From positions 1-23,634 of the forward strand of contig JBBCAV010000384.1 of assembly GCA_051382305.1 (NCBI GenBank): DNA of 23,634 nucleotides, in the 5' to 3' direction. Below the pieces are notes generated by a model. It did not search any database and was not told where the DNA came from. It saw nothing but the letters and a program-made list of their open reading frames with translations. This DNA comes from Bdellovibrionota bacterium FG-2. GTDB lineage: Bacteria; Bdellovibrionota; UBA1018. Both the position numbers and the translations under genes were made by a program. Positions 685-16,961 of this stretch are shown here, in pieces; the stretch's first letter is position 1, and each line of letters begins with the position of its first letter.

Positions 685-3600
685 TCAGAGAGTTCGAAGA
701 GCATCGAGGGCGCTCTCGACTTGAAAACAAAGTTCCCTGGGAGAGAGGGTCAGAACTTTGACAACGAATTTCGACTCTGGCAGGAGGCGGTATTTTTCGA
801 CATCAGTCCCCACTAGGGCGATTGCGCGCGCCGGGTCAAGAGTGCTTATGGGTCCAGATTGAAGAATAAACTTATCAGAACTTGCGGTGAGGCTCATGAT
901 GCCATTTGTCTTGAGTAGAATTTTGATTCTGATGAGCCAAAGAAGATTCTCGGCCTCTGCTGGGAGGGGGCCAAAACGGTCAAGAAGTTCGTCTTTGTAG
1001 GTGTCGACCGTTGAGAAACTCGCGGCAGAGGAAAAGCGTCGATAAAGAGACAGTCGCTGGTGAGTATCAGGGATGTAGTCTTCCGAGAGAAAAGAGGGGA
1101 ACGGGGTTTTGATTTCTGGCTCTTTTGAGCTTTCTTGCAAGGAAAGGGGTCTTCCTTGAATTTCTCGGACCGCCTCTTCAAGGAGCTCAAGGTAAAGATC
1201 AAGCCCCACGGATGCAATATGTCCAGATTGCTGCGGACCCAGAAGATTCCCACCGCCGCGAATCTCTAAATCATGTGACGCGATGTGAAAGCCGCTTCCG
1301 AGCTCAGCAAAGCGTTGAATAACTTCAAGGCGCCGTTTCGCCTCTTCGGAAACTGGGCTTTCCTGGGGAATAAAGAGATAGGCGTGTGCACGTTGCTGAC
1401 CTCGGCCGATTCGGCCACGGATTTGATAAAGCTGGGCAAGCCCCAGAGCGTCCGCGCGATTGACGATGAGGGTGTTGGCGGAAGGAACATCGAGTCCGGA
1501 CTCGATGATACTTGTGCACACAAGGACGTGGCTCTTTTTTTGATAAAAATCGAGCATGGTCTTTTCGAGCTCACCTTCAGGCATTTGACCATGAGCAACG
1601 GAAAAGCGCGCTTCAGGAATAAGAGCCTGAAGTTTTTTAGTAATTGAATAGATGGAACTCACCTTATTATGAAGAAAGAAAACCTGCCCATCGCGCGCGA
1701 GCTCCGAACGAATCACCTTCTGAATAAGGGGCTCATCATAGCGCGAAACGTGCGTCCGAATCGCGAGACGGTCTAAGGGGGGTGTGTTAATAAGGCTGAT
1801 ATCTCGGAGACCGGAGACGGCCATATTCAAGGTGCGAGGAATGGGGGTTGCCGTTAAAGTAAGAACATGGGTGTTCGTTTTTAGGGCTTTGAGCTTTTCT
1901 TTGTGTTCGACCCCAAAGCGATGCTCTTCATCGATGATCAATAACCCAAGGTCCTTGAATTGAATGTCTTTAGACAGAAGTCGGTGCGTTCCAATAACGA
2001 TATCCATTTTTCCTTGCGCAAGTTCTGCCAGGATTTCTTTTTGTTCCCGCGAAGTTTTAAAGCGAGACAAGGAATCCGCCTTTATCGCGAAAGCCGAAAG
2101 CCGCGCCCGAAAAGACTGTTCATGCTGAAGAGCTAGGAGAGTTGTAGGGACGAGAACGGCAACTTGCTTTCCTTCAGTCACGACACGAAAGGCGGCCCGA
2201 ATAGCCACTTCAGTTTTCCCATAGCCGACATCACCACAAATGAGGCGATCCATCACTTTTCCTGAGTGTAAATCCTCGAGAACGTCTTCAATGGCTGTGA
2301 GCTGGTCTGGAGTTTCCTCAAAAGGAAAAGTCGATTCAAACTCTCGAAATAGAGAGTCCCTATGAGGAAATACAACTCCCGCGCGCAATTTTCTCTCTGC
2401 ATAAAGCTGGACAAGGTTAACGGCGAGCCTCTGAACTGCCTCCTTGACAGAAGCTTTTGTTTTCTGAAACGAAGCATTCCCGAGCCGATCGAGTGTGATA
2501 GTAGTGCCGGACCCTGCATATTTTTGAATGACATTGAGCCGGTAAACGGGAATGTATAGACGATCATTCCCTGCGTATTCTAAAAGGACAAAATCAGAGG
2601 GAGCCCCAGTGAGGGTTAGCCGGGCAATTCCTTGGTATTTCGCGACCCCATGTTCTTGATGGACGACTGTATCCCCTATGGCAAGATCCGCCAAAGCCTG
2701 CAGTCCCAACCATTCTTTTGAAGCGCTACTGCCCCCTTTCTTGGATCGAGAAAGATTTGTGGTGGTCTTATTTTTGGAATGGCGGGTTCCCAAGATCTCT
2801 TCTTCGGAAAGGACAATCAGGCCCTCGGTGGGCCAGCGAAAGCCCGCTGAAATATTCCCCTTCATTATAGTGATGGCGTTCTTTGAAATAAAGGGCTCAA
2901 GTGTGCAGCGGACTCTTCGCTCCTCTAAAAGAAAACGAAAGCGATCCATTTTTGAGTCGGTAAGACAAAATACAAGAACAGTCTGCCCCTCCTTTGTCCA
3001 TTCTTTTAGGAGGGGTTCGTAGTAGGAAAGGGTGGTCGCAGCGTCAGCGCTTGGGCCTATATTCGTCTCGATATTAACTGAAAACTCCCGTGTATTTTGA
3101 TCACATTGCCCTTCGAGCAGGAAGGGGTCAAAGTAGATTCGAGCTTGCGAGAAGAAGGTGTCGGTTTGTTCTGGGGAAAAGAGAAAAAGTTTCTCAGGAG
3201 GGGGAATAATGAGGCCGCGTTCCGTGCAGATTTTTGATTCCCCTTGTAGTGACTTAATAAAGGAACCCCATTCTTGCAGGCAACTTTGTTCGTCATTCCA
3301 GGCAAAATAGGTGTTTTCTGGGAGGTAGCCAAGAAGTGAGGTTGGGGTTGTGTAACAAAAAGGAACCCAACTGTCGCTGTGCTCAGGATAAATTTCTTCT
3401 CTCACAAGGTTTAAGAGTGGATCTCGAATCGCGCGCGAAACGTCGCAGTCGTCACAATAGGTTTTGATTTTCTCGCGAACGACAAGTTGGCTTTCCGGGC
3501 TTAAAATAAATTCTCTCGCCGGGCAAAGCAGGACTTCTGATAACGTTCTTGGGTAGGTGCGTTGGGTCTCTGGGTTAAAAGGTCTAATTCGTTCAATTTC

Positions 3601-4200
3601 GTCACCAAAAAACTCAATACGTATAGGTTCATCAAGATGAGGGGAGAAAATATCCAGAAGGCTGCCACGAACGGCGTAGGTTCCCCGATCTTCAACAGTG
3701 TCAGAAGCTAAATAGCCCGCTTTCACTAGATGTAGGATTACGTCGTCTCGCGAAGGCCCACTGTTTCCAGTTCTTAGCAGAAGCGTCAGCCGCTTGAATA
3801 ACTCGAAAGGAAGTGTGGCTTGGGTCGCTGCGGCAAGAGTTGTAATGATAATTTTCACGGGAGATGAAGCAAGAAGAGATGAGAGCCCCGCTAAGCGAGA
3901 ATAGCGAGACTTTAGTGAGGGCGCAACCGGGCTGTAGGGGGAAATTTCCCAGGATGGAAATAAGACGATATCTGAGGGTGTAAGCCCAAAAAGAGGCGCA
4001 AGCGCAAGAAAGTCGGAATAGGTTTCCCATGTCGCCTCTTCGTTTTTACACATTAAGACAAAGGGATTGGCGTATTCTAAGGAGCGGCAAAACGTTAGAG
4101 TGAGATAGGCCCTCACTAGAGCTGTGGTGCCAGAAACCCTCACCCGTGAGCCGGGCTTGTCGAGCGCGGTGAGAATTTCCTTAATCCCAAAGGATTGCAT
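685..4200 (-). CDS. mfd: Transcription-repair coupling factor Mfd (1171 aa)
   Basis: UvrB-like N-terminal region (YAVRGSLLDIF...RIEFFGDEIERIR), RID/CarD-like domain (GDTVVHQEHGVAKYQG), SF2 helicase Walker A GDVGYGKT, DEEH box, TATPIPRT, QIRGRIGR, TRG motif HDLEIRGGGNLLG, C-terminal TRCF domain (RLSLYRR...DRFGPLP). Confidence 0.98.
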   Translation of the reverse strand: MQSFGIKEILTALDKPGSRVRVSGTTALVRAYLTLTFCRSLEYANPFVLMCKNEEATWETYSDFLALAPLFGLTPSDIVLFPSWEISPYSPVAPSLKSRYSRLAGLSSLLASSPVKIIITTLAAATQATLPFELFKRLTLLLRTGNSGPSRDDVILHLVKAGYLASDTVEDRGTYAVRGSLLDIFSPHLDEPIRIEFFGDEIERIRPFNPETQRTYPRTLSEVLLCPAREFILSPESQLVVREKIKTYCDDCDVSRAIRDPLLNLVREEIYPEHSDSWVPFCYTTPTSLLGYLPENTYFAWNDEQSCLQEWGSFIKSLQGESKICTERGLIIPPPEKLFLFSPEQTDTFFSQARIYFDPFLLEGQCDQNTREFSVNIETNIGPSADAATTLSYYEPLLKEWTKEGQTVLVFCLTDSKMDRFRFLLEERRVRCTLEPFISKNAITIMKGNISAGFRWPTEGLIVLSEEEILGTRHSKNKTTTNLSRSKKGGSSASKEWLGLQALADLAIGDTVVHQEHGVAKYQGIARLTLTGAPSDFVLLEYAGNDRLYIPVYRLNVIQKYAGSGTTITLDRLGNASFQKTKASVKEAVQRLAVNLVQLYAERKLRAGVVFPHRDSLFREFESTFPFEETPDQLTAIEDVLEDLHSGKVMDRLICGDVGYGKTEVAIRAAFRVVTEGKQVAVLVPTTLLALQHEQSFRARLSAFAIKADSLSRFKTSREQKEILAELAQGKMDIVIGTHRLLSKDIQFKDLGLLIIDEEHRFGVEHKEKLKALKTNTHVLTLTATPIPRTLNMAVSGLRDISLINTPPLDRLAIRTHVSRYDEPLIQKVIRSELARDGQVFFLHNKVSSIYSITKKLQALIPEARFSVAHGQMPEGELEKTMLDFYQKKSHVLVCTSIIESGLDVPSANTLIVNRADALGLAQLYQIRGRIGRGQQRAHAYLFIPQESPVSEEAKRRLEVIQRFAELGSGFHIASHDLEIRGGGNLLGPQQSGHIASVGLDLYLELLEEAVREIQGRPLSLQESSKEPEIKTPFPSFLSEDYIPDTHQRLSLYRRFSSAASFSTVDTYKDELLDRFGPLPAEAENLLWLIRIKILLKTNGIMSLTASSDKFILQSGPISTLDPARAIALVGTDVEKYRLLPESKFVVKVLTLSPRELCFQVESALDALRTL

Positions 4201-4206
4201 AAATAG

Positions 4207-4235
4207 AATCTACTTTCCTTGACACATTTTTTCAA
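4207..4235 (-). promoter_or_regulatory. Putative sigma70 promoter for mfd (probably leaderless transcript)
   Basis: Minus strand reads TTGAAA (4235-4230), a 17-nt spacer, TAGATT (4212-4207), 6 nt, then the mfd ATG at 4200. No well-spaced Shine-Dalgarno sequence. Confidence 0.6.
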
Positions 4236-4247
4236 CTTCAGTAATCT
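4219..4247 (+). promoter_or_regulatory. Putative sigma70 promoter for the double nuo operon
   Basis: Perfect -35 TTGACA (4219-4224), 17-nt spacer, -10 TAATCT (4242-4247; T1, A2 and T6 conserved). GAGG at 4254-4257 precedes the ATG at 4269. Confidence 0.75.
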
Positions 4248-4268
4248 TTTCGCGAGGTTCTCATTAAG

Positions 4269-4691
4269 ATGCCAAGCGGTTGGGAAATTTACTACGTTAT
4301 TCTATTGTCGGCGACCCTCGCTTTGGGGTTTCCAATTATATTGGCGATATTTTTATTCATTATCATACCTAAAAAAAGAAAATTTCGCAGGGCTCAAAAT
4401 GCGAAAAAAAATAACCAGGCGCGGCCCGTTGTTCGCAGTCTTCTTGGGCGCAGGATTAATGTCCGATTCTATCTTTCGGCAAATGCGGCATTAATATTTG
4501 TTACGCTCTCTTTTGGTTTTGTTCCCTGCGTGGGGGCAATTCAAAAAGAGAGCGAAAGAATGGATGTGGTGGCGGCGATTGTTTCCTTATGCTGCTTGGG
4601 CGTTTTCTCCGGTGTTGGGTTGTTATATGCTATTCGAAAAGGCGATTTAAGCTGGTTGAGATCTTATCATCGGCATGAGGATGAGTTATAA
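4269..4691 (+). CDS. nuoA: NuoA-like subunit, divergent copy 1 (lacks the ECG loop motif and the D/E of FDVE)
   Basis: Three hydrophobic segments; RINVRFYL matches R.SVRFYL and YAIRKGDLSW matches YxxRKxALxW; first gene before nuoB. FDVE is replaced by FVTL. Confidence 0.8.
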   Translation: MPSGWEIYYVILLSATLALGFPIILAIFLFIIIPKKRKFRRAQNAKKNNQARPVVRSLLGRRINVRFYLSANAALIFVTLSFGFVPCVGAIQKESERMDVVAAIVSLCCLGVFSGVGLLYAIRKGDLSWLRSYHRHEDEL

Positions 4692-5164
4692 TGGAGTCCT
4701 CAATCTACGATTCCACCTTGGGGAGGGTCTTGCGTTGGGCTCGCTACAGCTCCTTTTGGTATATTTCTGTCGGAGGTGGGTGCTGTGCTGATGAGCCGCT
4801 TCACACGGTGGGTTGTCGTTATGATCTAGAGCGGTTCGGGTGTGTTCCACAATCGGAACCCAGGCAGGTTGATCTTCTCATTGTCAACGGTGTGATCACA
4901 TATAAGGCGTTGCCCTATTTGCGTTCCTTTTATGATCAGATGCTAGCCCCCAAGTATGTGATGTCGATTGGCTCCTGCGCGAATTGTGGGGGGCTTTTTA
5001 GTCCCGATAATAGTTATTCCGTGGTCCCTGGGGTAAATAAGATTATTCCCGTGGATGTTTATGTTCCCGGTTGCCCGCCCCGTCCCGAAGCCATCATGAA
5101 TGGACTTCTAGCACTTCAGGAAAAAATACGTGGATATAATAGAGCTGAAAAAAAATTTATCTGA
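4691..5164 (+). CDS. nuoB: NuoB-like Fe-S (N2) subunit, copy 1
   Basis: GCCADE, RYDLERFG, PRQVDLLIV, YDQMLAPKYVMSIGSCA, VDVYVPGCPPRPEA. All four N2 cysteines are present. TAATG overlap with the upstream gene. Confidence 0.95.
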   Translation: MESSIYDSTLGRVLRWARYSSFWYISVGGGCCADEPLHTVGCRYDLERFGCVPQSEPRQVDLLIVNGVITYKALPYLRSFYDQMLAPKYVMSIGSCANCGGLFSPDNSYSVVPGVNKIIPVDVYVPGCPPRPEAIMNGLLALQEKIRGYNRAEKKFI

Positions 5165-5648
5165 CGCACTTTCAGGCAGAATCTTGCAGTTCGGACAGCT
5201 CGGCCGGGACGGGGTTCTCTCTGTCTGGATTGAAGCGAAGCATATTGATGAGGTGGCCCTTTTGCTTCGGAATGAATTGTTGCTGGACTTTTCGAGTTTA
5301 GAAAATTTCTTTGTGGCGCAGATAGATTCGGCTCTCATTCTAAGTTATTTTCTGTGTTCTCCAAAAAACCATGCTGAAGTCATTCTCCGGGCGTCGGTTG
5401 TCCCTCAGAATCCAGATGCAAAAGTCAGGGTGCCGTCGGTGCGTGAAATTTGGCCTATGATAGAACATCAAGAACGGGAGAGTTCAGAGCTGTTTGGGCT
5501 TTCCTTCTTCTTGGGGCTCACGCCCAACGAGACCCCGGAAGGAGAACAAAAATTTCTTCCTTCAGGGTGGGAGGGTTTTCCTCTTCGCAAGGAATATACT
5601 TTTCCGGAAACCTTCCTGAGTGTTAGGCACCAACCGGAGGTAGAATGA
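5130..5648 (+). CDS. nuoC: NuoC-like subunit, divergent copy 1
   Basis: VPSVREIWP, ERESSELFG (canonical ERExxDxFG), WEGFPLRKEY (canonical GHPLRKD). GTG start overlaps the nuoB 3' end by 35 nt, so the exact start is uncertain. Confidence 0.88.
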   Translation: MDIIELKKNLSDALSGRILQFGQLGRDGVLSVWIEAKHIDEVALLLRNELLLDFSSLENFFVAQIDSALILSYFLCSPKNHAEVILRASVVPQNPDAKVRVPSVREIWPMIEHQERESSELFGLSFFLGLTPNETPEGEQKFLPSGWEGFPLRKEYTFPETFLSVRHQPEVE

Positions 5649-6778
5649 ATTTCCCTCTTTTCGGCGAGCGGCTTAAAACAGACATAACGAGCTGGGAAGT
5701 GGGCCCCTACCATTTAGCGCTCCCCGCCCCGATGAAACTATCATTGAAACTCGATGGCGAAGTGATTGTTTCTGGGGAAGTTGAGACGGGATTTTTGCAT
5801 CGAGGGCTTGAGAAGTGTTTTGAGCGCCATTCTTGGCGCTCTGCACTTCCTTATGCGGATCGACTGGACCCCGAGGCGGCGGTTTTTGGAGAACTCGTGT
5901 ATTGCCTGGCGGTTGAAGAGATTGCAAACATACTTATTCCCCCAAGAGCCCAGGCAATTCGAGTGATTCTTTCAGAACTAACGCGAATTTCGGGTCACCT
6001 GGGAAGTGCAATTCGGGTTGCGCGAGCGGTGGGTGCAGAAAAAATTCAACACTACATTTTGAGGGATCGAGAGAAAATTACAGACCTTTTTGAGCTTTTG
6101 ACAGGAGCCAGATTCTCTCTAAATTTTCTTCGGATCGGTGGCGTGAGGGCAAACGTTACAGATGGCTTTATTGAGCGGGTGCTTGATATTTGTGATCTCG
6201 TTCGCATTCGACTTAAAGAGTACAATGACTTGTTTACCTTTAATCACGCTTTTCTAAAGCGCACGATGAATGTGGGGGTTCTTTCGCCAAAGATGGTAAG
6301 AAAATATGGAATTACCGGACCCAGCGCGCGTGCCTCAGGCCTTATGATGGACGCGCGAAAGGATCGGCCCTATTGTGGATATGAGATTCTTGATTTTGAG
6401 GTTCCACTTGGACAAGGAGAGGGTGGGACGTTAGGTGATGCACATGAGCGATTTTTAATAAGACTTCGGGAAGTTTCTCAAAGCATTGAGATTCTTAGGC
6501 AGGTGACCGAGGGGTTGCCAAGTGGAGAATATATCTCTCAAACGGACGAGCTTATGGTCCCAGAGGGCGAGGCGTATGTCCGTGTTGAAAGTTCGCGTGG
6601 GCTCTTAGGATGTCATTTAATATCTCTCGGGGGGGCGTCGCCCCATCGGGTTCAATTTAGGACGCCAAGTGGTTTTCATCTCCTCTCAATCCCAGAGTTA
6701 GTTGTGGGTCTTAAATTAGAAGATTTGTCAGTTGTCTTGGCGAGTCTTGATCTCTCTATAGCGGAGGCAGATCGATGA
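5645..6778 (+). CDS. nuoD: NuoD-like (49-kDa family) subunit, copy 1, quinone-site residues absent
   Basis: GPYH, LDGEVI, GFLHRGLEK, DRLD, SELTRISGHL, TGAR, IGGV, GPSARASG, RTPS and C-terminal LDLSIAEADR. No hydrogenase CxxC motifs. GGAGG RBS and ATGA overlap. Confidence 0.93.
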   Translation: MNFPLFGERLKTDITSWEVGPYHLALPAPMKLSLKLDGEVIVSGEVETGFLHRGLEKCFERHSWRSALPYADRLDPEAAVFGELVYCLAVEEIANILIPPRAQAIRVILSELTRISGHLGSAIRVARAVGAEKIQHYILRDREKITDLFELLTGARFSLNFLRIGGVRANVTDGFIERVLDICDLVRIRLKEYNDLFTFNHAFLKRTMNVGVLSPKMVRKYGITGPSARASGLMMDARKDRPYCGYEILDFEVPLGQGEGGTLGDAHERFLIRLREVSQSIEILRQVTEGLPSGEYISQTDELMVPEGEAYVRVESSRGLLGCHLISLGGASPHRVQFRTPSGFHLLSIPELVVGLKLEDLSVVLASLDLSIAEADR

Positions 6779-7851
6779 ATGGTCATGGGCCTCAGTGGAG
6801 CGCACTTTTGCAGCACCTATTTGGATTACGGGGTTCCTACCCACAGTGGTTCCTCGCTTTAATAGGTCTCGCAGCCGTATACTTGGGTCTAGTGGTTCCT
6901 GGTGCGTGGTTTGTTTCCTATGTTGATCGAAAACTTGGAGCAGACTTTCAAGCTCGCGTGGGGCCTAATCGTGCGGGACCGTCCGGATTTTTTCAACCCT
7001 TAGCGGACTTCTTGAAGCTGTTGCAAAAAGATGCCCAAGAAAAAATAACGGGTGGAGACCTACTATGGATGGTTATTTTTACGTCTGCACTTTATTCGAG
7101 CGTCGCTGTGATTCCATTGGGCGCGTCTTTTATCTTTGTTGATACGGATTTGAGCGCGTTCATTCCATTCTGGTCTGCGCTCATCTTAGCTCTCGGAACG
7201 ATGTTACTAGGTTTTAGCCGACCGACAGTACCGGGCTGGTTTGGTGCGATAAAGGTTGCGGGACAGGCTTTTTCTGGGGCGTTTCCGGCTTTAGTTTCGT
7301 TGGTGACGGTTGGAATTAGAGCGGGCGGATTTCGCTGGAGTCGCCTGGTTGGTTCGCAGGGGGTTTTCCCAGCAGAATGGGCCGCTTTCTCAAATCCGTT
7401 TCAGTTTTTAGCCCTCCTCGTGTTCATGATTAGCGGTCTTGTGATGATGAGTTTGCCGCCGATGGATGGCGTGATCTCCTCTTACAATATGAATGGCGGA
7501 GTGATTTCGCATCTCTTTGGCAGGCGTTGGGCGATTTTTAGGTTGGGGCGGTTTTATGCGTTTTTTCTTTGGTGTCTAGTGGGGTCTGCCTTGTTCTTGG
7601 GAGGCTGGCAGCTTCCGGCGCGTGTCACTGAAGTTTTGTTAGATTCTGTTGTCTTAAGGCAAGGAGTTGAGTCGATTTTACTTTTAACAAAGACCTTTAT
7701 TTTGATGGTCGTTGTTATTTGGGTTTCTCGAGTTAATTCAAGAACCCGCGTAGATCAGGTTACCGATTTTGCTTGGAAGGTTCTGTGTCCGTTCGCATTG
7801 GTGGCCCTGATGGGGTCTGCCCTTTGGGCGGGGTGGGAGCTCATCCTATGA
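6775..7851 (+). CDS. nuoH: NuoH-like membrane subunit, divergent copy 1
   Basis: DRKLGADFQARVGPNRAGPSGFFQPLADFLKLLQKD, LFLGGW, RTRVDQVTDFAWKVLCP. GGAGG RBS and ATGA overlap with the nuoD-like gene; no nuoEFG in between. Confidence 0.92.
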   Translation: MNGHGPQWSALLQHLFGLRGSYPQWFLALIGLAAVYLGLVVPGAWFVSYVDRKLGADFQARVGPNRAGPSGFFQPLADFLKLLQKDAQEKITGGDLLWMVIFTSALYSSVAVIPLGASFIFVDTDLSAFIPFWSALILALGTMLLGFSRPTVPGWFGAIKVAGQAFSGAFPALVSLVTVGIRAGGFRWSRLVGSQGVFPAEWAAFSNPFQFLALLVFMISGLVMMSLPPMDGVISSYNMNGGVISHLFGRRWAIFRLGRFYAFFLWCLVGSALFLGGWQLPARVTEVLLDSVVLRQGVESILLLTKTFILMVVVIWVSRVNSRTRVDQVTDFAWKVLCPFALVALMGSALWAGWELIL

Positions 7852-8381
7852 GTGGTTCTATTTTTATCTCGTGCATTACATATTTGCGAGACGTATTTTC
7901 AGGGGCTCGCTCGATTCTTGAGTCTTGTGTTGCGGCGATTCCTTATCTCTTCAGTGCCGGAGAAAATAGAAAAGAAGTAACCGAGCAATATCCTGATCCG
8001 ATTTCTTCGCGGACTGCGGACGATTTGCCTTCGCGATCTCGGGGGATTCTGTTTAATGATATCGATCGATGTACGGGCTGTCGAGAGTGTGAAAAAATTT
8101 GCCCAAATAGGAGCATATTCATCGAAACTCAGTCGGGATCTGACCCCGCTAAGATTTGGGTTTCTGTCTTTGATATTGATTTGTCAAAATGTGTCTTCTG
8201 TGGCCTTTGCGTTGATGTGTGTGTTCCTGAATCGATCGTGCATACCAAACAATATGAGGGGGCGGTCTATATCCTTGATGATTTGAAAGCAAGCTTTGGT
8301 CGCGGTGGGGTCACACCTGAAATGCAGGCCCGCTGGGCCGCGAACCGCCGGGCGAATGAGTCAGAAGGGGGGGGATTTTGA
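7848..8381 (+). CDS. nuoI: NuoI-like 2x[4Fe-4S] subunit, copy 1
   Basis: VTEQYP, CTGCRECEKICP and CVFCGLCVDVC (8 Cys). ATG at 7848 overlaps the nuoH stop (ATGA) and follows GGGAG, so it is preferred over the track's TTG start at 7773. Confidence 0.92.
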   Translation: MSGSIFISCITYLRDVFSGARSILESCVAAIPYLFSAGENRKEVTEQYPDPISSRTADDLPSRSRGILFNDIDRCTGCRECEKICPNRSIFIETQSGSDPAKIWVSVFDIDLSKCVFCGLCVDVCVPESIVHTKQYEGAVYILDDLKASFGRGGVTPEMQARWAANRRANESEGGGF

Positions 8382-8923
8382 TTTTAGTTGGATTTTCATT
8401 AGTAGCTGTTTTTTGCGCCATTTTTGCGGCCTTTTCGAGCGATATAAAGCGCGCGATTTTAGCCCTTTGGGTTTGTGGCCTTGGAATGGGGGCGGTCTTT
8501 CTCGGCCTTGGAATGGAGTTTCTTGCTGTAATTCAATGGATCGTGAGCACGTTGGTCGCGGTTGCCTTTGTCTTTTTTTTGGTCATGTTTGGTGAATTTG
8601 AACAAAGGATGGAAGGGGTTCCAAGAGAGCCTAAAAGAGTTCAAAATAAAATCGAGAGGGCCCTTCCCTTAGGCCTTGGTGCGGTTTTTTGTGTAATTTT
8701 TGTTATGGCCTTGGAACAGATAAAGGGGTCTGCTGAAAAGATAGATGAGATTCTTAAGGGTGGAGTGGTGAGTGGAGTCGATCTTTCTGTTTTTGGAAAA
8801 GTTTTTATGAGGGAGCACTTCTTGTCTCTTCAAGTCTTAGCTTTGATGTTACTCTTAGTGATTGTGGGTGGGGGTGTGATCGCACGCCCAGAGGCACCCA
8901 GGGACAATAAGGAGGGAATATGA
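8378..8923 (+). CDS. nuoJ: NuoJ-like subunit, divergent copy 1
   Basis: Five hydrophobic segments; EFLAVIQWIV (canonical xFLAxxQIxVY), FGKVFMREHFLSLQVLALMLL (canonical G..LF..YxLPFExxSxxLL); position between nuoI and nuoK. TTG start in a TTGA overlap after a G-rich RBS. Confidence 0.85.
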   Translation: MILVGFSLVAVFCAIFAAFSSDIKRAILALWVCGLGMGAVFLGLGMEFLAVIQWIVSTLVAVAFVFFLVMFGEFEQRMEGVPREPKRVQNKIERALPLGLGAVFCVIFVMALEQIKGSAEKIDEILKGGVVSGVDLSVFGKVFMREHFLSLQVLALMLLLVIVGGGVIARPEAPRDNKEGI

Positions 8924-9210
8924 TCCTCGCATTGCCCGGCATTATTGGTGGGATTGGTTTAGCCTGCATCATCTTTAGAAAAACATTATTGGGGGTTCTT
9001 ATCGGGGTTCAGCTCCTCATTCTTGGTGCCGTAGCAGCGGTAGTGATGGCTGGAATTGTATCGGGTCGACAGGTATCGGGCCATGTGTCGGGCGTTCTAA
9101 TATTTTTAAGTGGAGTTGCACTAGTTGCTCTGGGCTTTGCTTTAGCAATTCGGATGTTTTATTTACGGAGAAGAATTTCAATGTCTGAACTCCGCACTCT
9201 GAGACAATAA
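8920..9210 (+). CDS. nuoK: NuoK-like subunit, divergent copy 1 (both membrane Glu absent)
   Basis: 96 aa with three TM segments; RKTLL..IGVQL matches RRNxx..SIEL, ALGFAL matches AIGLAL, C-terminal ELRTLRQ. TAAGGAGG RBS at 8908-8915 and ATGA overlap. Confidence 0.82.
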   Translation: MILALPGIIGGIGLACIIFRKTLLGVLIGVQLLILGAVAAVVMAGIVSGRQVSGHVSGVLIFLSGVALVALGFALAIRMFYLRRRISMSELRTLRQ

Positions 9211-9213
9211 TTA

Positions 9214-11133
9214 ATGGAAGACGTAAATAACCTAAAAATTCTGAGTCTTGGGATCTTCGGTGCCATTCTTTTTGGCTTAAGTCTCTTTTTCCTGAAGAAG
9301 GAGTTTCAGAAATACACGAGATGGATTTTCTTTTTTGTTTTGTTGTTTTTTTTTGGCGTGGTGCTTTTTGTGGCCACCGCGCAGGATCCCATTTTTGCAC
9401 CCGCCGATTGGAGCCGGGGCTGGGTGTTGCCTCGTGATGCCTTAGGTGCGATTACAGCAGGCTTTCTGGTTGATGCTCAAGCTTTCCTGGGCTTGTTTTT
9501 CGCGACAGCCCTAACAGCACTCTTGGGAGGTTTCTTAAGTATTCGCGCCGATACGCCTTCTTGGGCGCGAGTTATTCCTTCTTTTTTGGTGAGCCTAGGC
9601 GGTTTTTCTATCAGTGTTACCGCGCTGACGCCCTGGATGGTCTTTATCGGGTTCTTTATTTCAGTTTTTGGTGGGGCGGTTGTTCTGGGTGCTAAATGGA
9701 AAACTGACGCAGACTCCATGTTGGGCGTTCGGTTTGCATGGGAGAGAAGTAGTGGTTTGTTTTGTTCGATATTTGGGGCTTGCGTTTTGGCGGCCACCCA
9801 ACCCCCCCTTCTCTTAAATCACCAGGTTGCGGGGGTCGAGCCGTTGGGCGGAGCCCTGCTTCTATTGGGGCTTTTCTCTCAGTTTCAATCTTTTCCGTTT
9901 TCGGCGCGACGATTAGCGCAACGTCAGGTTCCGTTGGTGGCCAGCGTCCTCGTTGCACAGGTTTTACCCGGTTGGGCCGTGCTCTTTTTCTTGGCGCGAT
10001 TCGAACCAAGCCTCACGGGGTCCACTATTGTTTTGGTTTACGGGTGGATCTCCCTCTTTTCTGCGGTCCTTTCGACCGGCGAAGGACTGTTTCAGTCTGA
10101 GAGTCCCAGAGGGATTACGATTTGGGTTTCGGCGGGCTTTGCTTTTGCTTCCGCTTTGTTTGCCTTTTCTGGAGCTCAGGCGGGTTTTGTTTGGGGACTG
10201 GGGGTCGGTCTAGGGGGCATTTCTCTTTCTCTTTTTGCCGAAAATGGGCGAGGCCAAAAAACGGAAAAGAAAACTGTAAACAAGCAAAACAACGGGCTTC
10301 TTGTTCTGATTTCGAGCTTCCTCTCCTGCGCGGCGGGAACGGGTTTTCTTGGTTTTGTCTCGAGCATCGGAGGGCATCAGTGGTTTACACAGGGGCTTGA
10401 AAGCGCGCCGATGGCCGCAAGTTTTAGTGTGGCTCTATTTTGTCTGGCTTTCTTGGGATGGAAGAACTTTTTTCAACTCAACCGCATACAGTCTGGCCCT
10501 ACCGTACCCTTGGTTACGGCTGTTTTATCTCTTTTTGTGGTAAGTCTCTCGTTAAGTGTTTTCTGGGACGGCACCCTCTTTGGGGGGGTTGTCTTAGAGG
10601 GGGCGGATTCTATCTTTCCATCGATTTTGAGGAAAATATTTATTCAGCTGAGGCCCATTGCGCAGAAAAGTGATATGGCGATCGTCGCTTCGGGGGGGTA
10701 TTTTGGGATCGCTCTTTTCGCTTTTTTTACAGCTTATTGGGGATTCGGACGAAAGCGCGACGTTTTGTCGGACGTAGCAAAGAAGTTTGTGCGGATGTTT
10801 GGAGTTGTGTCAGATGGATATGGGATAGATAGACTATTTGCAGGCGCGCTACGATTTCTTATATTTATAAGTGAGCGCCTTTACCGTAGAATTGATCAAG
10901 TGTTTTGGGGCCGGTTGTTGCCGGCGGGTTTTTCAAGAATTATTGAAAAGGGTTCACAGGTAATTACAGTGATTGACCTACGGTTCTTTGTAAGGTTGTC
11001 GGCCGCGCTGCGAGGAGCAGTTGAGCTTCCCGCTAAGGCCTTGCAGTTAATCCAGAATGGAAATGTGCAGTGGTATCTTTTTTTTGCAGTCGCTTCTGGA
11101 ATCGCAGTTTTACTAAATTTCTTAAAAGGTTGA
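9214..11133 (+). CDS. nuoL: NuoL-like antiporter-family subunit, extremely divergent copy 1
   Basis: 639-aa polytopic protein between the K- and M-like genes. Recognisable remnants: GFLVD (beta-hairpin/TM3), LGAKW...ER (IGxW...NR), AAGTGFLGFVS (GxPxxxGFxSK), and the NuoL-specific C-terminal lateral helix with GYGIDRL...IDQ...LQLIQNGNVQWY. Confidence 0.78.
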   Translation: MEDVNNLKILSLGIFGAILFGLSLFFLKKEFQKYTRWIFFFVLLFFFGVVLFVATAQDPIFAPADWSRGWVLPRDALGAITAGFLVDAQAFLGLFFATALTALLGGFLSIRADTPSWARVIPSFLVSLGGFSISVTALTPWMVFIGFFISVFGGAVVLGAKWKTDADSMLGVRFAWERSSGLFCSIFGACVLAATQPPLLLNHQVAGVEPLGGALLLLGLFSQFQSFPFSARRLAQRQVPLVASVLVAQVLPGWAVLFFLARFEPSLTGSTIVLVYGWISLFSAVLSTGEGLFQSESPRGITIWVSAGFAFASALFAFSGAQAGFVWGLGVGLGGISLSLFAENGRGQKTEKKTVNKQNNGLLVLISSFLSCAAGTGFLGFVSSIGGHQWFTQGLESAPMAASFSVALFCLAFLGWKNFFQLNRIQSGPTVPLVTAVLSLFVVSLSLSVFWDGTLFGGVVLEGADSIFPSILRKIFIQLRPIAQKSDMAIVASGGYFGIALFAFFTAYWGFGRKRDVLSDVAKKFVRMFGVVSDGYGIDRLFAGALRFLIFISERLYRRIDQVFWGRLLPAGFSRIIEKGSQVITVIDLRFFVRLSAALRGAVELPAKALQLIQNGNVQWYLFFAVASGIAVLLNFLKG

Positions 11134-11142
11134 GAGGGTAAA

Positions 11143-12657
11143 TTGAATAACCATTTTTTAAGTTTGATGATCATCCTCCCGTTGGCGGGAGCGGTTTTGC
11201 AAATGGGGATTTCGAAAAAAATGGCGCTCGCAGGTTTCGCGCGTTGGGGGGCATTGATTTCGAGCATCGCGGCGAGTCTGGTGGGTGTTGTTCTCGTTTT
11301 CTCCATGGACCGACAGACGCCAGACTTACAGTTTACAGAGAGTCTTTCTTGGGTAGGCTCTTATGCAATTCATTATGAGTTAGGTTTGGATGGTCTCAAT
11401 GCGCTTTTGGTTCTCTTGGTTTCAATTATTTTCCCTGTATTGCTTGCTGCTGAATGGAATCAAAAAACAGGGTTGCGCGGAATGCACGGACTGTTTCTGA
11501 TTCTCCAATGCGCCTTTTTTGGTGTGGCGGTTGCTCAAGATCTGTTCCTGCTATTCTTTTTTTGGGGCTTAAGTGCGATGCCCTTTTATTTCTTGGTGGG
11601 AATTTGGGGGGGGGAAGGCCGAGAAAGTGCCGCCTTTCGTTCGGTTGTCGCGTCCGCCATTGGAAATTGCTTTTTGTTTGCCGCGCTTATTCTCGTCTAC
11701 TACTCAGCGGATCCGCATAGTTTTTCAATAAGAGACCTTTCGGGTGGAAGGTTTTCTGGAAAAAGTTTTTTCTTTTTTGGACGGGAAATTTTGGTGTCGA
11801 GTGCGGCATTTGTTTTGATGAGTTTAGGGCTCGCATGTCGCGCGCCTATTTGGCCATTGCATGGGTGGTTTTCAAATGTCGCCAAAGAAGCGCCCCCTAC
11901 CGTTTTTATTTCTCTCGCGGCCGTAACGGTTCCTGTGGCTATCTATATTTTTGTTCGGCTCTCGTATAGTCTCTTTCCGGAGATGCTCTTGGGAACAGGA
12001 AATGTCATTGTTTTGGTTGGTGCCGCTAATCTCGTGATGGGTGGCATTTTTGCGGTCGCCCAAAAAGGCTTAAGGCTTTTACTTGCCTTCCTTTGTCTTA
12101 GCGGCGTGGGTCTTGCCCTTATTGGGGTTGGTTCATTGCAGTCGGCTGGGGTTGTTGGCGCAGTGTTTCACTTGTTGGTTTTTGGACTGGGCCTTTGTGG
12201 TTTCGGCCTGTTTGCGGGTGTTATCGCCTCCCGTTCCGGGCACTCAATGTTTTTGAAGGAGCAGCGGCAGCGCAGTTTTGGTGGCCTTGCCACGGTGACT
12301 CCCATGATCGCAGTAGTTGCGGGTGTTTTTATTGCTTCGCTTCTGGGAATTCCGGGCTTCGGCGGATTTGTTGGAAACGCGCTTCTGATCATTGGAAGCT
12401 ACTCCGTTCATCCTGCGATGGTCATTGTAGCAGGTCTGGCACTTTTGCTTTCTACCTATTTTCTTTTTACGATGTATCGATGTGTTTTTTTTGGAGAACC
12501 CAACACGGCGCTTGAGAATTTCTCTGATCTAACGCTTAGGGAAAAGTTCTATTTTCTCCCTCTGGTTGCGGGCTTGATTTTCGCTGGAATCTACCCCAAA
12601 CCACTTTTAGAGCTTGTGAGACCTACGGTTCTCACTTTACTGTCGACGATAAAATAG
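11143..12657 (+). CDS. nuoM: NuoM-like antiporter-family subunit, divergent copy 1
   Basis: YELGLDGLN, DLFLLFFFW..MPFYFLVGIWG, PIWPLHGW, FGGLA...P, SLLGIPGFGGFVG, DLTLRE, GIYPKPLL. TTG start after GAGGG. Confidence 0.92.
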   Translation: MNNHFLSLMIILPLAGAVLQMGISKKMALAGFARWGALISSIAASLVGVVLVFSMDRQTPDLQFTESLSWVGSYAIHYELGLDGLNALLVLLVSIIFPVLLAAEWNQKTGLRGMHGLFLILQCAFFGVAVAQDLFLLFFFWGLSAMPFYFLVGIWGGEGRESAAFRSVVASAIGNCFLFAALILVYYSADPHSFSIRDLSGGRFSGKSFFFFGREILVSSAAFVLMSLGLACRAPIWPLHGWFSNVAKEAPPTVFISLAAVTVPVAIYIFVRLSYSLFPEMLLGTGNVIVLVGAANLVMGGIFAVAQKGLRLLLAFLCLSGVGLALIGVGSLQSAGVVGAVFHLLVFGLGLCGFGLFAGVIASRSGHSMFLKEQRQRSFGGLATVTPMIAVVAGVFIASLLGIPGFGGFVGNALLIIGSYSVHPAMVIVAGLALLLSTYFLFTMYRCVFFGEPNTALENFSDLTLREKFYFLPLVAGLIFAGIYPKPLLELVRPTVLTLLSTIK

Positions 12658-12669
12658 AAGGAGGCGATA

Positions 12670-14151
12670 GTGAGAGAGCTTATTGCATTTCTTCCAGAGA
12701 TCATTTTGAGCATCACCTTGCTCTCTATTATTTTTGCTGAAATTACCTATCAGGGTTCGCGCGTTCGGTTTACGACACTTATTGCCTTGTTGGGTTTGTC
12801 TGCAGCCTTTCTTCAGACGCTCGTGGCGCTTAATTACGGACCGACCTTTATTTTTGGAAAAGTTCTCGTGATTGATGGGTTGTCTCTATTCTTTAATCTG
12901 TTCTTTACAGCCCTAGGGGCACTTGCAGTTATTTCGGCCGTTCAGGTCAAAGAAATCTCAAGATCCACGCGGACGGAGTATTGCGCTCTTGTTGTGGCGG
13001 CCTGCCTGGTGATGTGTCTGGCTGCCTCGGCGGCCGATCTTCTCCTTTTATTCCTGTCGCTCCTGTGTGTTAATATTGTGTTTTCGGTCCTTGCCGCATT
13101 TGGAAAAAGATCCATTCTTTCTATCGAGGCCGGGATTAAGTATTTACTATTTTCAGTGGTCTCGGTTGGTTTTTTACTCTTCGGAATCGCTCTAATTTTT
13201 GCCGCGACACATGAGCTAAATATTTACGAAATTCATCGCGCTATTCTTACTCATTCGGTCGACCCCAGAGTCATGTTTGTGACCTTTCTATTTTTCTTTT
13301 TTGCTATTGGTTTTCAAGTGGCGGCTTTTCCATTCTATCTATGGGCACCGGATGTAGTTGAGGGTGCGCCCACCCCCGTCTCGTCATTTTTAGTTTTGGG
13401 TTCGCGCGGGGTGGGTTTTGCGGTGTTATTAAGGCTCGTCTTGGTCCTGCTTTCCGAGCCGACCCAAGCTGGGGCCGCAGGGGGAGAACTTCGTCATTTG
13501 GTTGCTGATTTTGATTGGCCAAAAGTATTGGCAAATCTCGCGGGATTTTCAATGTTGTTTGGAGCTCTTCTTGCGCTACGCCAAAAAGGTGCAAAGCGAA
13601 TGGTGGGGTGTTTGGCAGTTTCTCAAACTGGATTTTTTCTAATGGCGCCTCTTGTTTTGGATCAGCAAGGGGTCGCTGCGTTAATGTACAATCTCGTGAT
13701 TGAGGTTTTTGCGCTTACGGGAATCTTTTTCGTTCTCTCGGTGTTTTATGACGAAATGCGTTCAGACCGATTAGTGGATTTCAAGGGGATCTTGGGTAAG
13801 GCCGTTTTGGAATGTATCTGTTTAATTCTGTTTCTTCTTTGTTTGGTTGGCATCCCTCCCCTTCCCGGGTTTATTGGAAAGTTTGCTTTGGTGGGATCTG
13901 CTGTGCAGCACGGGTGGATTGCTCTTGCGGCTATTGCGATCTTTTCGATGGGGGTTTCCATGGCGGCAGTGGCCCGATTCATTTATGCGATGATCTCAGA
14001 TTTTCGTAAACCTGTGGAAGCTGGGTTGAGGTTTGGTTTTAGGGGAAGAATGTTTCTGTTTTCGTTGGTGGTCCCAATGCTCCTTTGTGGCGGGTTTGCT
14101 GAAGTCATTTTTCAATGGGCTGGCAAGCATTTAGGTTCAATTTTATGGTAG
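12670..14151 (+). CDS. nuoN: NuoN-like antiporter-family subunit, divergent copy 1
   Basis: LPEIIL, IDGLS, TEY, SIEAGIKY, AAFPFYLWAPDVVEGAPTPV, KRMVG, GIPPLPGFIGKF. GTG start after AAGGAGG (12658-12664). Confidence 0.93.
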   Translation: MRELIAFLPEIILSITLLSIIFAEITYQGSRVRFTTLIALLGLSAAFLQTLVALNYGPTFIFGKVLVIDGLSLFFNLFFTALGALAVISAVQVKEISRSTRTEYCALVVAACLVMCLAASAADLLLLFLSLLCVNIVFSVLAAFGKRSILSIEAGIKYLLFSVVSVGFLLFGIALIFAATHELNIYEIHRAILTHSVDPRVMFVTFLFFFFAIGFQVAAFPFYLWAPDVVEGAPTPVSSFLVLGSRGVGFAVLLRLVLVLLSEPTQAGAAGGELRHLVADFDWPKVLANLAGFSMLFGALLALRQKGAKRMVGCLAVSQTGFFLMAPLVLDQQGVAALMYNLVIEVFALTGIFFVLSVFYDEMRSDRLVDFKGILGKAVLECICLILFLLCLVGIPPLPGFIGKFALVGSAVQHGWIALAAIAIFSMGVSMAAVARFIYAMISDFRKPVEAGLRFGFRGRMFLFSLVVPMLLCGGFAEVIFQWAGKHLGSILW

Positions 14152-14185
14152 CCGGCTGAGGTCTGTTGGGGCTATAAACGTCTAT

Positions 14186-14545
14186 ATGGCATACATTCCC
14201 GTTTTGATCTTACTGGGCCTTGGTCTGGCAGTGGGTGGTGCAGTTCTAGTTCTTACTCATCTTATTGGAACTGGTATTCCGAATAGGAAGAAGAACCAAC
14301 CCTTCGAGTGTGGTGTTCCTGGTATGGGAGATGCGCGACATCGGGTCTCTGTTCGCTTTTATCTCGTTGCGATCCTATTTCTCCTTTTTGACGTCGAGGC
14401 GATTTTCTTTTTCCCTTGGGCCTTGGTTTTTAAAAAGTATTTGAGCATCAATTCTTTTATTCTTCTGGAAATGGCATTTTTCGTGGCGATTTTTCTTGTT
14501 GGATATTTCTATGTGCTGCGGAAGCGCGCGCTCGATTGGGATTAA
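14186..14545 (+). CDS. nuoA: NADH-quinone oxidoreductase subunit A, canonical copy 2
   Basis: KNQPFECG, RVSVRFYLVAILFLLFDVEAIFFFPWA, YVLRKRALDWD. Confidence 0.97.
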   Translation: MAYIPVLILLGLGLAVGGAVLVLTHLIGTGIPNRKKNQPFECGVPGMGDARHRVSVRFYLVAILFLLFDVEAIFFFPWALVFKKYLSINSFILLEMAFFVAIFLVGYFYVLRKRALDWD

Positions 14546-14554
14546 GGAGCCTTT

Positions 14555-15070
14555 ATGTCTAAAGACGGATCAGCATCATTCTTTACTACCCGCTTTGAAG
14601 CGGTTTTAGATTGGGGACGCAAGAATTCTCTGTGGCCCCTTCCGTATGGAACCAGTTGTTGTGGAATTGAAATGATGTCCACGCTCTGTTCCGATTACGA
14701 TATGTCCCGCTTTGGAGCGGAGGTTGTGCGGTTTTCTCCTCGCCAGAGTGACTTATTGATTGTTGCTGGCATCATTACAACCAAAATGGCGCCTGTCTTG
14801 AAGACGGTCTATGATCAAATGAGTGATCCAAAATATGTGATGTGCGCGGGGGCGTGCGCGTCTTCAGGTGGTATTTTTAACGTTTATAGCGTCCTACAGG
14901 GGATTGATACAATGATTCCGGTAGATGTATATTTACCTGGCTGTCCACCTGCTCCCGAAGGGTTTCTGCACGGCCTTCTTCAATTGCAGGAAAAGATTGC
15001 GCGAGGGGAAACGCATTCACATCGAAAATTAGCAGAATTTAAGCGCGGCAATGCTCTGTCTTCATTATAA
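14555..15070 (+). CDS. nuoB: NADH-quinone oxidoreductase subunit B, canonical copy 2
   Basis: [49 protein letters not shown]. Confidence 0.97.
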
Positions 15071-15091
15071 GGGCACATAGAGGATCACACC

Positions 15092-15658: not shown

Positions 15659-15686
15659 TGTTTTCTAAATAAAGGCACAGAATAAA

Positions 15687-16937: not shown

Positions 16938-16961
16938 GCGTGAATTCGGCGGAGGATTGAA

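Follow-up and report, generated by a model that had tools for sequence, protein, structure and literature searches.

Organization of the locus

The analyzed stretch of DNA (the window) comprises 23,634 nucleotides (nt) of the forward strand of contig JBBCAV010000384.1 from Bdellovibrionota bacterium FG-2 and carries two tandem sets of nuo genes, which code for subunits of complex I. The gene order in the window is mfd on the minus strand, an 11-gene nuo set (copy 1), a spacer of 34 nt and a canonical nuo operon (copy 2) that reaches to the end of the window. The present analysis concerns copy 1 and in particular its nuoD gene (nuoD1), the product of which lacks the residues that bind the quinone headgroup in canonical homologs.

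The copy-1 set nuoABCDHIJKLMN occupies positions 4269-14151 of the plus strand. The gene nuoA1 (4269..4691) gave a weak match to the Pfam family PF00507. Pfam assignments were also obtained for nuoB1 (4691..5164), nuoC1 (5130..5648; PF00329, E=4.1e-16), nuoD1 (5645..6778; PF00346, E=2.9e-70), nuoH1 (6775..7851) and nuoJ1 (8378..8923). The nuoD1 product, a homolog of the 49-kDa subunit (Nqo4), has 377 amino acids (aa). The remaining genes are nuoI1 (7848..8381), which codes for 177 aa if translation starts at the ATG at 7848, nuoK1 (8920..9210), nuoL1 (9214..11133, 639 aa), nuoM1 (11143..12657) and nuoN1 (12670..14151). All 11 subunits are full length and their frames are intact in the window. 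Inspection of open reading frames (ORFs) and Pfam matches revealed no nuoE, nuoF or nuoG gene between nuoD1 and nuoH1 nor anywhere else in 4269-14151, and gene set and order are those of the NUO11 type (nuoABCDHIJKLMN without nuoEFG). In public records all genes of the copy-1 type are labeled "NADH-quinone oxidoreductase subunit". The nuoN1-nuoA2 spacer (14152..14185) is followed on the plus strand by the canonical 14-gene operon, identified by ORFs and Pfam, which extends from 14186 to the window end and includes the ORF of nuoD2 (15687-16937). Upstream of copy 1, the mfd ORF (685-4200, minus strand) encodes a transcription-repair coupling factor of 1171 aa.

Quinone-site residues and fold of NuoD1

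The amino acid sequence of NuoD1 was compared with that of NuoD2 by BLASTP (31% identity, E=1e-67). The motifs GPYHLALPA, DRLDP and ARAVGA of NuoD1 were paired with GPTHPAMHG, DRLNY and AVDLGA of NuoD2, respectively. Alignment with Nqo4 from T. thermophilus (Protein Data Bank, PDB, chain 2fug_4; phmmer, E=3.1e-72) was ungapped over the quinone-site stretch, with an offset of +11, and placed His23, Pro27, Pro76 and Ala128 of NuoD1 at the positions of His34, His38, Tyr87 and Asp139 of Nqo4, respectively. Both ligands of the quinone headgroup (His38 and Tyr87 in Thermus numbering) and their partner Asp139 are replaced by residues encoded by ccc (Pro27, 5723-5725), ccc (Pro76, 5870-5872) and gcg (Ala128, 6026-6028). 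The two alignments bear out the first-pass annotation of this DNA, according to which NuoD1 had lost three quinone-site residues in exact register, with only the equivalent of His34 surviving. The plus-strand stretch named there (5702..6028) corresponds on direct reading to the codons from Gly20 to Ala128, and the factual statements of that annotation held throughout.

The catalytic pocket of complex I has a counterpart in [NiFe] hydrogenases, and the first-pass annotation had also excluded a [NiFe] site because of the missing CxxC cysteines. At the four positions at which the [NiFe]-type references (P0225, P0229, P0230, and P0263) carry Cys, NuoD1 has Asp75, Ala78, Ser371, and Glu374. Judged from these residues, the NuoD1 site is not that of a group 4 [NiFe] hydrogenase (Mbh/Ech/Hyc). 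The further remark that NuoD1 lacks the residual Cys pair of the membrane-bound sulfane reductase (MBS) proved correct as well, as none of the four positions holds a Cys, whereas the part of PMC7684303 dealing with MbsL gives C85 and C385.

An AlphaFold2 model of NuoD1 was obtained with a predicted local distance difference test score (pLDDT) of 86.1 and a predicted template modeling (pTM) score of 0.87. The model superposed on solved 49-kDa subunits with template modeling scores (TM-scores) of 0.89-0.90 (Foldseek), which indicates that the fold of NuoD1 is intact.

Conservation of the NuoD1 substitutions

In a protein database search with NuoD1, 8000 candidates were scored and 1784 of them were relatives. 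Of these 1784, the best 120 were 59-100% identical to NuoD1 and 350-422 aa long. In an alignment of 27 of the best 120, Pro27 and Pro76 were invariant and His23 was conserved in at least 90%. Pro29, located in the same loop as Pro27, is a third invariant proline.

Genomes were scanned with the NuoD1 alignment, which gave 303 relatives, the best 80 of which were kept; a scan with the single NuoD1 protein had recovered only distant NuoD proteins from Nitrosopumilales and from one member of the Bryobacteraceae. Among the best 80, 50 loci (L012-L060 and L063), labeled as Oligoflexia, Bdellovibrionales, Bdellovibrionia, Bacteriovoracaceae or similar, all had altered motifs and are referred to below as the family, or as "disarmed". 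The other 30 loci (Calditrichota, Chlorobiaceae, Ignavibacteria, Planctomycetota, and others) were 38-42% identical to NuoD1, and all of them had HPSTHG, DRxDY, and LDxGA.

Residue counts for copy 1 were made on orthologs from 37-49 loci per subunit and compared with a canonical set consisting of copy 2 of those loci and the 30 canonical 11-gene loci. For NuoD, 49 orthologous loci and the window were placed in one alignment with 58 canonical sequences. Position 27 was Pro in 46 family sequences, Ser in two and Gln in one, as against His in 58/58 canonical sequences. At position 76 the family had 46 Pro and one each of Thr, Gly, and Ser, as against Tyr in 58/58. Position 128 was occupied in the family by Ala (31), Ser (9), Thr (6), Val (2) or other residues and never by Asp, the residue found in 57 of the 58 canonical sequences. 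Position 23 was His in 44 family sequences, Asp in five and Asn in one. Since Pro27 and Pro76 occur in 46/49 orthologs at positions that are His and Tyr in all canonical sequences, the alignment demonstrates that the NuoD1 substitutions are fixed and not the result of chance decay.

Two further observations concern the distant NuoD proteins. Those from Nitrosopumilales/Thaumarchaeota (L001-L010) also lack a Thermus-type triad, having HPG-SGH, ERP(V/I)IHD and YGIFLGH instead, which makes them an independent example of a pocket that deviates from the canonical one. The Bryobacteraceae metagenome-assembled genome (L008) encodes a fused NuoCD homolog of at least 526 aa with neither quinone-type nor hydrogenase-type motifs (VGPVYEGGAGES, SERFSAKS), which is probably an Ehr-like protein.

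Iron-sulfur cluster ligands of copy 1

The register of NuoB1 was checked against a NuoB homolog (PDB chain 7tgh_S7), which is annotated as NADH dehydrogenase subunit 10. The four Cys residues that bind cluster N2 (C31, C32, C96, and C128 in NuoB1) were each present in 48/48 orthologs. NuoI1 keeps both CxxCxxCxxxCP motifs, and each of its eight Cys residues was found in 49/49 orthologs. Copy 1 consequently possesses the N2 site with tandem Cys and the two NuoI [4Fe-4S] sites that are characteristic of complex I. In 20 more divergent relatives the NuoI cysteines were kept in 20/20 and the NuoB cysteines in 17/20.

Loss of charged residues in the membrane arm

The E-channel carboxylates of complex I (NuoK E36 and E72, the Asp/Glu pair of NuoA, and the NuoH glutamates) are absent from copy 1. 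The NuoA pair, conserved as Asp in 95% and Glu in 98% of the canonical sequences, is replaced by Ile/Leu/Val and Leu in the family (Val78 and Leu80 in the window). In NuoK1, compared with E. coli NuoK (3rko_K), E36 and E72 correspond to Gln31 and Leu68; in the family these positions are Gln in 42/46 and, for the second position, at which the window has Leu68, Gln in 40/44. The conserved Tyr in transmembrane helix (TM) 3 of NuoJ is Ser in the family (Ser57 in the window). In NuoH1 the acids of the TM5-6 loop and of the entry to the E-channel are replaced. With the register set against NdhA, the family has Ala, Met/Leu, and Leu/Ile in place of E161, E221, and R224 of copy 2, and Ile/Leu, Ser/Met, His, and Arg in place of E231, E233, E243, and E256. 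NuoH1 also lacks the residue found at K144 of copy 2, and Ala169 is among its replacements.

The conserved residues of the antiporter-like subunits NuoL, NuoM, and NuoN (Glu in TM5, Lys in TM7, Lys/His in TM8, and Lys/Glu in TM12) are for the most part missing as well. Alignment of NuoM1 to Nqo13 of P. denitrificans (8qby_M) showed Gly142, Arg233, Pro264, and Asn412 at the positions of E141, K232, K263, and E405, respectively. In the NuoM family the TM5 Glu is replaced by Gly/Ala, the TM7 Lys by Arg (38/38), the TM8 Lys by Pro (35/37) and the TM12 Glu by His/Asn. In NuoN1, aligned to E. coli NuoN (3rko_N), E133, K217, and K247 correspond to Leu132, Gln216, and Arg246, and K395 is kept as Lys404. 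The NuoN family has Gln/Leu instead of the TM5 Glu, Gln instead of the TM7 Lys and Arg instead of the TM8 Lys, with the TM12 Lys kept in 32/38. The single NuoL1 sequence had no Pfam and no PDB match. With a profile of 28 NuoL orthologs, an alignment to NdhF (6hum_F, E=1.6e-16) was obtained that spans positions 13-636 and takes in the lateral helix and the anchor at the C-terminus, from which it follows that NuoL1 is whole but stripped. Essentially all conserved charged residues are gone from the NuoL family, among them the TM5 Glu, the TM7 Lys and further Lys, His, and Asp residues. These alignments show that the substitutions in the NuoD pocket are one part of a complex-wide loss, which includes E-channel and antiporter charges in NuoA, NuoH, NuoJ, NuoK, NuoL, NuoM, and NuoN. 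In confining the change to NuoD, the first-pass annotation was too narrow.

A probably remodeled pocket next to cluster N2

The residues Pro27, Pro29, Pro76, Glu77, Glu83, Cys87, His136, and Cys323 of NuoD1 are specific to the family and nearly invariant in it. His136 aligns with Phe147 and Arg/Lys124 with Thr135 of the Thermus protein, and both T135 and F147 are given in a section of PMC4758237 among the residues lining the Thermus quinone chamber. In NuoB1, the residue after the tandem Cys is Asp34 instead of the canonical Ile/Val, and it is likewise nearly invariant in the family.

The distribution of these residues was compared between NuoD proteins with and without Tyr/Phe at the position of Tyr87 in 32 rows spanning the whole clade. 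Glu/Asp77, Glu/Asp83, and His136 occurred together in 19/19 non-Tyr rows, whereas in the Tyr/Phe-keeping rows position 77 was hydrophobic and position 83 was Asn/Ser (once Glu or Ala). Position 34 of NuoB was Asp/Asn in 9/10 non-Tyr lineages examined, the remaining one (L145) having Ala, and was hydrophobic in the Tyr/Phe-keeping lineages. The loss of Tyr87 coincides with the gain of Glu77, Glu83, and His136 in NuoD and of Asp34 in NuoB. As all of the polar gains lie on one branch, they count as a single event and not as statistical co-evolution. The pattern of residues suggests that the NuoD1 pocket is polar and remodeled, and not merely emptied.

Selection and linkage to the canonical operon

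Selection on copy 1 was assessed by comparison of the window with the closest named relative (L012). Synonymous sites were saturated (0.67-0.79 differences per site). Nonsynonymous differences per site were 0.039 for NuoB1, 0.10 for NuoD1, 0.10 for NuoM1, and 0.22 for NuoL1. The copy-2 genes in reach had values of 0.04-0.11, and that of NuoB2 (0.046) was similar to that of NuoB1. On these substitution patterns the copy-1 genes are under purifying selection.

The detectable genes were in the same order in 50/50 family loci. The mfd gene was found upstream in 41/50, which are those whose contig reaches that far, and even the most divergent relatives have it as the divergently oriented upstream neighbor of their disarmed set. 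In 36 family loci nuoA2 followed nuoN1, and wherever the contigs extend far enough, mfd is succeeded by the 11 copy-1 genes and these by nuoA2B2C2D2. The nuoN1-nuoA2 spacer ranged from 23 to 264 nt and was at most 45 nt long in 28/36 of these loci; that of the window contains no promoter-like or terminator-like site. Because of the conserved tandem order, the short spacer and the lack of such sites in the window's spacer, copy 1 and the canonical operon are likely to be co-transcribed. In 25/36 loci the spacer measured 32-38 nt, an unusually constant length given that the NuoD proteins concerned are 43-83% identical to that of the window.

Distribution and evolutionary history of the disarmed set

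A best match of at least 355 bits to the family profile was found in 38 of 301 sampled genomes of the phylum. Bit score alone was inadequate for assignment, since divergent disarmed NuoD proteins scored 300-325 bits and canonical 11-gene NuoD proteins 330-349 bits, and motifs were therefore read. At least three divergent members with lower scores (G008, G132, and G221) were recognized in this way; one genome (G145) gave a partial match with unreadable motifs. All family matches came from genomes of the same family, order or class group as the window, and 32/35 genomes of its own family group had a family-level match. Ten genomes checked from other families had canonical NuoD only. The named genomes behind three of the loci (L012, L023, and L031) are assigned to GTDB class UBA1018 in the relevant part of PMC13200544, a paper on magnetotactic Bdellovibrionota. 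A scan with divergent representatives yielded more members, all of them in genomes labeled Bdellovibrionota and all beside mfd, together with nine matches from other phyla which were all canonical.

A NuoD tree of 77 rows was calculated with IQ-TREE (LG+C20, quick search). The disarmed clade was monophyletic (31 rows), with a value of 99 in the Shimodaira-Hasegawa-like approximate likelihood ratio test (SH-aLRT). It lay inside a radiation with canonical 14-gene and 11-gene types in which neither the branching order nor the sister group of the clade was resolved. Within the clade, the basal lineages have kept Tyr87 and lost His38 and Asp139, and the sequences of the non-Tyr type group together in a derived position (22 rows, SH-aLRT 99). 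The Tyr-keeping relatives occupy the same position between mfd and copy 2 and keep part of the NuoM/NuoN charges. Like quinone-type NuoD, the disarmed clade has the derived Asp86 at the position of the first vestigial Cys and no Cys in its C-terminus. The persistence of Tyr87 in basal lineages and these shared features point to a secondary and stepwise loss of the triad, and not to its primitive absence. An exclusive clade of the disarmed group and the phylum's own canonical 11-gene NuoD, a grouping named after the tree had been seen, was weakly rejected by the approximately unbiased (AU) test (p=0.029). The position of disarmed NuoD as sister to all canonical NuoD, obtained with FastTree, was not upheld by the mixture model.

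Several divergent members deserve separate mention. One lineage (L147-L152) has a shrunken disarmed set upstream of the canonical operon, in which NuoB, NuoD, and NuoI are recognizable and all cluster Cys residues are kept; in L151 (1-6400) NuoH measures about 269 aa and the NuoL-, NuoM-, and NuoN-like proteins 280, 327, and 454 aa, respectively. Three or four N2 cysteines are lost in the very divergent L136 and L153, and the first N2 Cys is lost in L145. NuoI keeps its eight Cys residues in L136 and L145, the two of these three covered by the NuoI table. The disarmed NuoD at G189:C22:45709-46815 (L118) contains one in-frame TAG and may be a pseudogene or reflect a sequencing error.

Other nuo-type sets in the same genome

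A third nuo set, a canonical 11-gene nuoABCDHIJKLMN set, is located on contig C157 (approximately 1241-11586, minus strand). Its NuoD has HPSTHG, DRIDY, and MDLGA, its NuoK has both Glu residues and its NuoA the Asp/Glu pair. The canonical residues of this set mean that the organism possesses two normal sets besides the disarmed one. Copy 2 (in the window and on contig C193) and the C157 set served as internal controls and keep the canonical residues.

A further cluster on contig C190 (approximately 11240-18592, minus strand) is Ehr/Hyf-like. It encodes a 530-aa fused NuoC-NuoD homolog without CxxC motifs, two NuoL-like proteins, and a NuoB homolog fused to a 2x[4Fe-4S] ferredoxin domain. The NuoG of the canonical operon in the window (18718-20130) has 470 aa; its Fe-S domains are present and the molybdopterin-like domain is largely missing. 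The best 120 NuoG homologs were all 464-490 aa long, so a short NuoG is the norm in this group. In the 85%-complete genome, the MenA, proteobacterial UbiA, and MqnA-type families gave no match above cut-off.

Comparison with known systems

Copy 1 was compared with related complexes. It has the same gene content and order as NUO11 of Chlorobi, Calditrichota, Ignavibacteria, and Planctomycetota. Both have a short NuoD of about 370 aa that lacks the insert of about 26 aa of the 14-subunit type, and the NUO11 proteins are the best non-family matches to NuoD1 (38-42% identity). Unlike copy 1, however, 30/30 NUO11 loci have HPSTHG, DRxDY, and LDxGA as well as the membrane-arm charges. With the canonical 14-subunit enzyme NDH-1 (Nqo of T. 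thermophilus, Nuo of E. coli, and copy 2) copy 1 shares the fold (TM-score 0.89-0.90), the tandem-Cys N2 site, the ligands of N6a/N6b and the lateral helix of NuoL. It differs in lacking NuoEFG, His38/Tyr87/Asp139, NuoK E36/E72, the NuoA Asp/Glu pair and most of the antiporter Lys/Glu residues.

NuoD1 aligns end to end with the MBS subunit 6u8y_L (E=3.3e-56). As far as the description of the P. furiosus enzyme (PDB entry 6U8Y) in parts of PMC7684303 goes, MBS resembles copy 1 in lacking equivalents of His38 and Tyr87 and in the length of its catalytic subunit. The same parts describe vestigial C85 and C385 in MbsL, a proximal cluster with only three Cys ligands, and a hydrophobic chamber that is seated on an ion-pumping arm of the Mrp type. 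Copy 1, in contrast, has none of the four Cys residues, four N2 ligands with the tandem CC, an apparently polar pocket and a charge-stripped arm, and it shows neither the two retained cysteines nor the three-Cys proximal cluster of MBS.

The NuoD proteins of Sulfolobus, Nautiliales, and Desulfurobacteriales are also without His38, Tyr87, and Asp139 (Degli Esposti, 2015; PMC4758237, in part). The absence of the triad in "ancestral" Nuo is interpreted there, in the sections concerned, as primary, whereas the loss in copy 1 points to a secondary event. A different kind of relative is Ehr, reportedly described by Marreiros et al. in 2013, for which a small set of hydrogenase-type genes and a large subunit without Cys are characteristic. 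In copy 1 all 11 genes stand in nuo order instead, and the Ehr-like candidate of this genome is the separate C190 cluster.

A description of the disarmed set was not found in the published literature searched, which did not extend to the supplements of PMC4758237 (fig. S2, deltaproteobacterial nuo clusters) that may bear on it. Several nuo clusters in Bdellovibrionota are mentioned in PMC13147790, the accessible portions of which do not refer to this set or its residues, and the portions of PMC12361115 and PMC13399641 concerned do not treat it either.

Proposed role of the copy-1 complex

Our observations are best explained if NuoD1 forms the core of a complete, selection-maintained "disarmed" paralog of complex I which is no longer an energy-converting quinone reductase; we put the probability of this interpretation at roughly 60%. 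The sequences show that copy 1 keeps the architecture of complex I and the terminal Fe-S wire, i.e., N6a/N6b in NuoI and N2 in NuoB, and electrons can probably still reach N2. It has lost the three residues that bind and protonate the quinone, the carboxylates connecting the quinone site with the membrane arm and most of the antiporter Lys/Glu residues. The former chamber of the quinone headgroup would have been rebuilt as a polar, charged pocket formed by His23, Glu77, Glu83, Arg/Lys124, and His136 of NuoD together with Asp34 of NuoB, and three prolines would hold the beta1-beta2 loop and the beginning of the helix in place. Most likely, such a pocket either accommodates a polar ligand other than quinone or is closed off by salt bridges. 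The membrane arm, stripped of its charges, probably acts as an anchor or structural partner and not as a pump, and synthesis of the copy-1 complex probably accompanies that of the canonical complex I encoded 34 nt downstream. A more specific version, in which His136, Glu77, Glu83, and His23 of NuoD and Asp34 of NuoB constitute a mononuclear metal site or a polar-substrate site within electron-transfer distance of N2, is speculative and seems unlikely as it stands.

Several points weigh against this interpretation. Among RNA runs, none was listed as containing positions 4269-14151. The gained residues are placed in one pocket by their alignment to Thermus chamber residues and by helix periodicity, and this placement should be taken as tentative. 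Quinone reduction without Tyr87 or without His38 has precedents (PMC4758237, in part). The NuoL alignments are at 22-36% identity, which makes single NuoL positions less certain, and one position of the internal controls (M3 TM7) was misaligned. Moreover, some canonical residues survive in copy 1, namely Lys404 in NuoN, His240 and Glu249 in NuoM, Asp231, Arg52, Lys53, and Asp78 in NuoH, and Asp369 (equivalent to D401) in NuoD, and the replacements are often polar (Gln, Arg, and His). Because of these surviving and polar residues, an unconventional ion path is possible.

Alternatively, copy 1 might still reduce quinone or a quinone analog through substitute ligands (Tyr22, His23, His136, and Glu77), perhaps without pumping or with another membrane carrier. 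The relevant sections of PMC4758237 provide parallels, since archaeal Fpo has Tyr87 and lacks His38 and Asp139, the NuoD proteins of Sulfolobus, Nautiliales, and Desulfurobacteriales do without the triad, and short-chain quinones still react after mutation of Tyr87. In the disarmed clade itself, basal members keep Tyr87, and N2 with its tandem Cys is retained. However, the three gained carboxylates and the Arg/Lys are ill-suited to a hydrophobic headgroup, the NuoH loop lining the tunnel is rewritten, the genome already has two canonical quinone-type sets, and seven membrane subunits without pump residues would bring no energetic gain, so that we regard continued quinone reduction as rather improbable. 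A comparably low likelihood is assigned to a redox-silent pseudo-complex that would serve as a structural or regulatory partner or as an assembly scaffold for the canonical complex I, its Fe-S clusters being needed for folding only. The tandem arrangement with the canonical operon, with its mostly short spacers and no terminator-like site in that of the window, would fit such a role, as would the loss of all classes of catalytic residues except the cluster ligands, the absence of N2 cysteines in L136 and L153 and the shrunken membrane subunits of L151. Yet no other residues of the set are conserved as strictly as the cluster ligands (48/48 and 49/49), and the coordinated gain of His, Glu, and Asp next to N2 looks like a new site and not like mere scaffolding.

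It is also conceivable that the copy-1 arm borrows NuoEFG from the downstream operon and oxidizes NADH without energy conservation. This would fit the absence of NuoEFG from copy 1 and the fact that the locus has EFG genes nowhere except in what is probably a shared transcription unit. However, EFG is likewise missing from the 11-gene sets that are the closest canonical relatives of copy 1 and from the canonical 11-gene set of this genome, and such borrowing appears quite improbable. That copy 1 is a decaying relic without function is least credible of all and can be given very little weight. The in-frame TAG in the NuoD of G189 and the shrinkage in some lineages might be cited in its favor, but the window and dozens of species have all 11 reading frames undisrupted, nonsynonymous differences are far fewer per site than synonymous ones, and the new residues are invariant.

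Significance of a complex I scaffold without quinone ligands

Complex I is among the most studied energy converters, and the coupling of quinone chemistry to distant proton pumps is still debated. The disarmed set is a natural complex I that lacks the ligands of the quinone, the carboxylates of the E-channel and the charges of the antiporter-like subunits, while selection has maintained the architecture and the Fe-S wire in dozens of species. Intermediates survive in the form of Tyr87-keeping lineages and of lineages in which the membrane-arm charges are only partly stripped. For the annotation of these uncultured bacteria, the label "NADH-quinone oxidoreductase subunit" on copy-1-type genes inflates the respiratory capacity inferred for them. 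If the set is expressed, it raises the questions of what a complex I scaffold does without quinone reduction or pumping and which of its residues serve folding and which serve coupling. Should the pocket indeed be a metal or polar-substrate site, copy 1 would be a new kind of Fe-S-fed, membrane-anchored enzyme and not a dead pump, and the pocket would have been re-tooled a third time, after the [NiFe] center of hydrogenases and the quinone headgroup of complex I.

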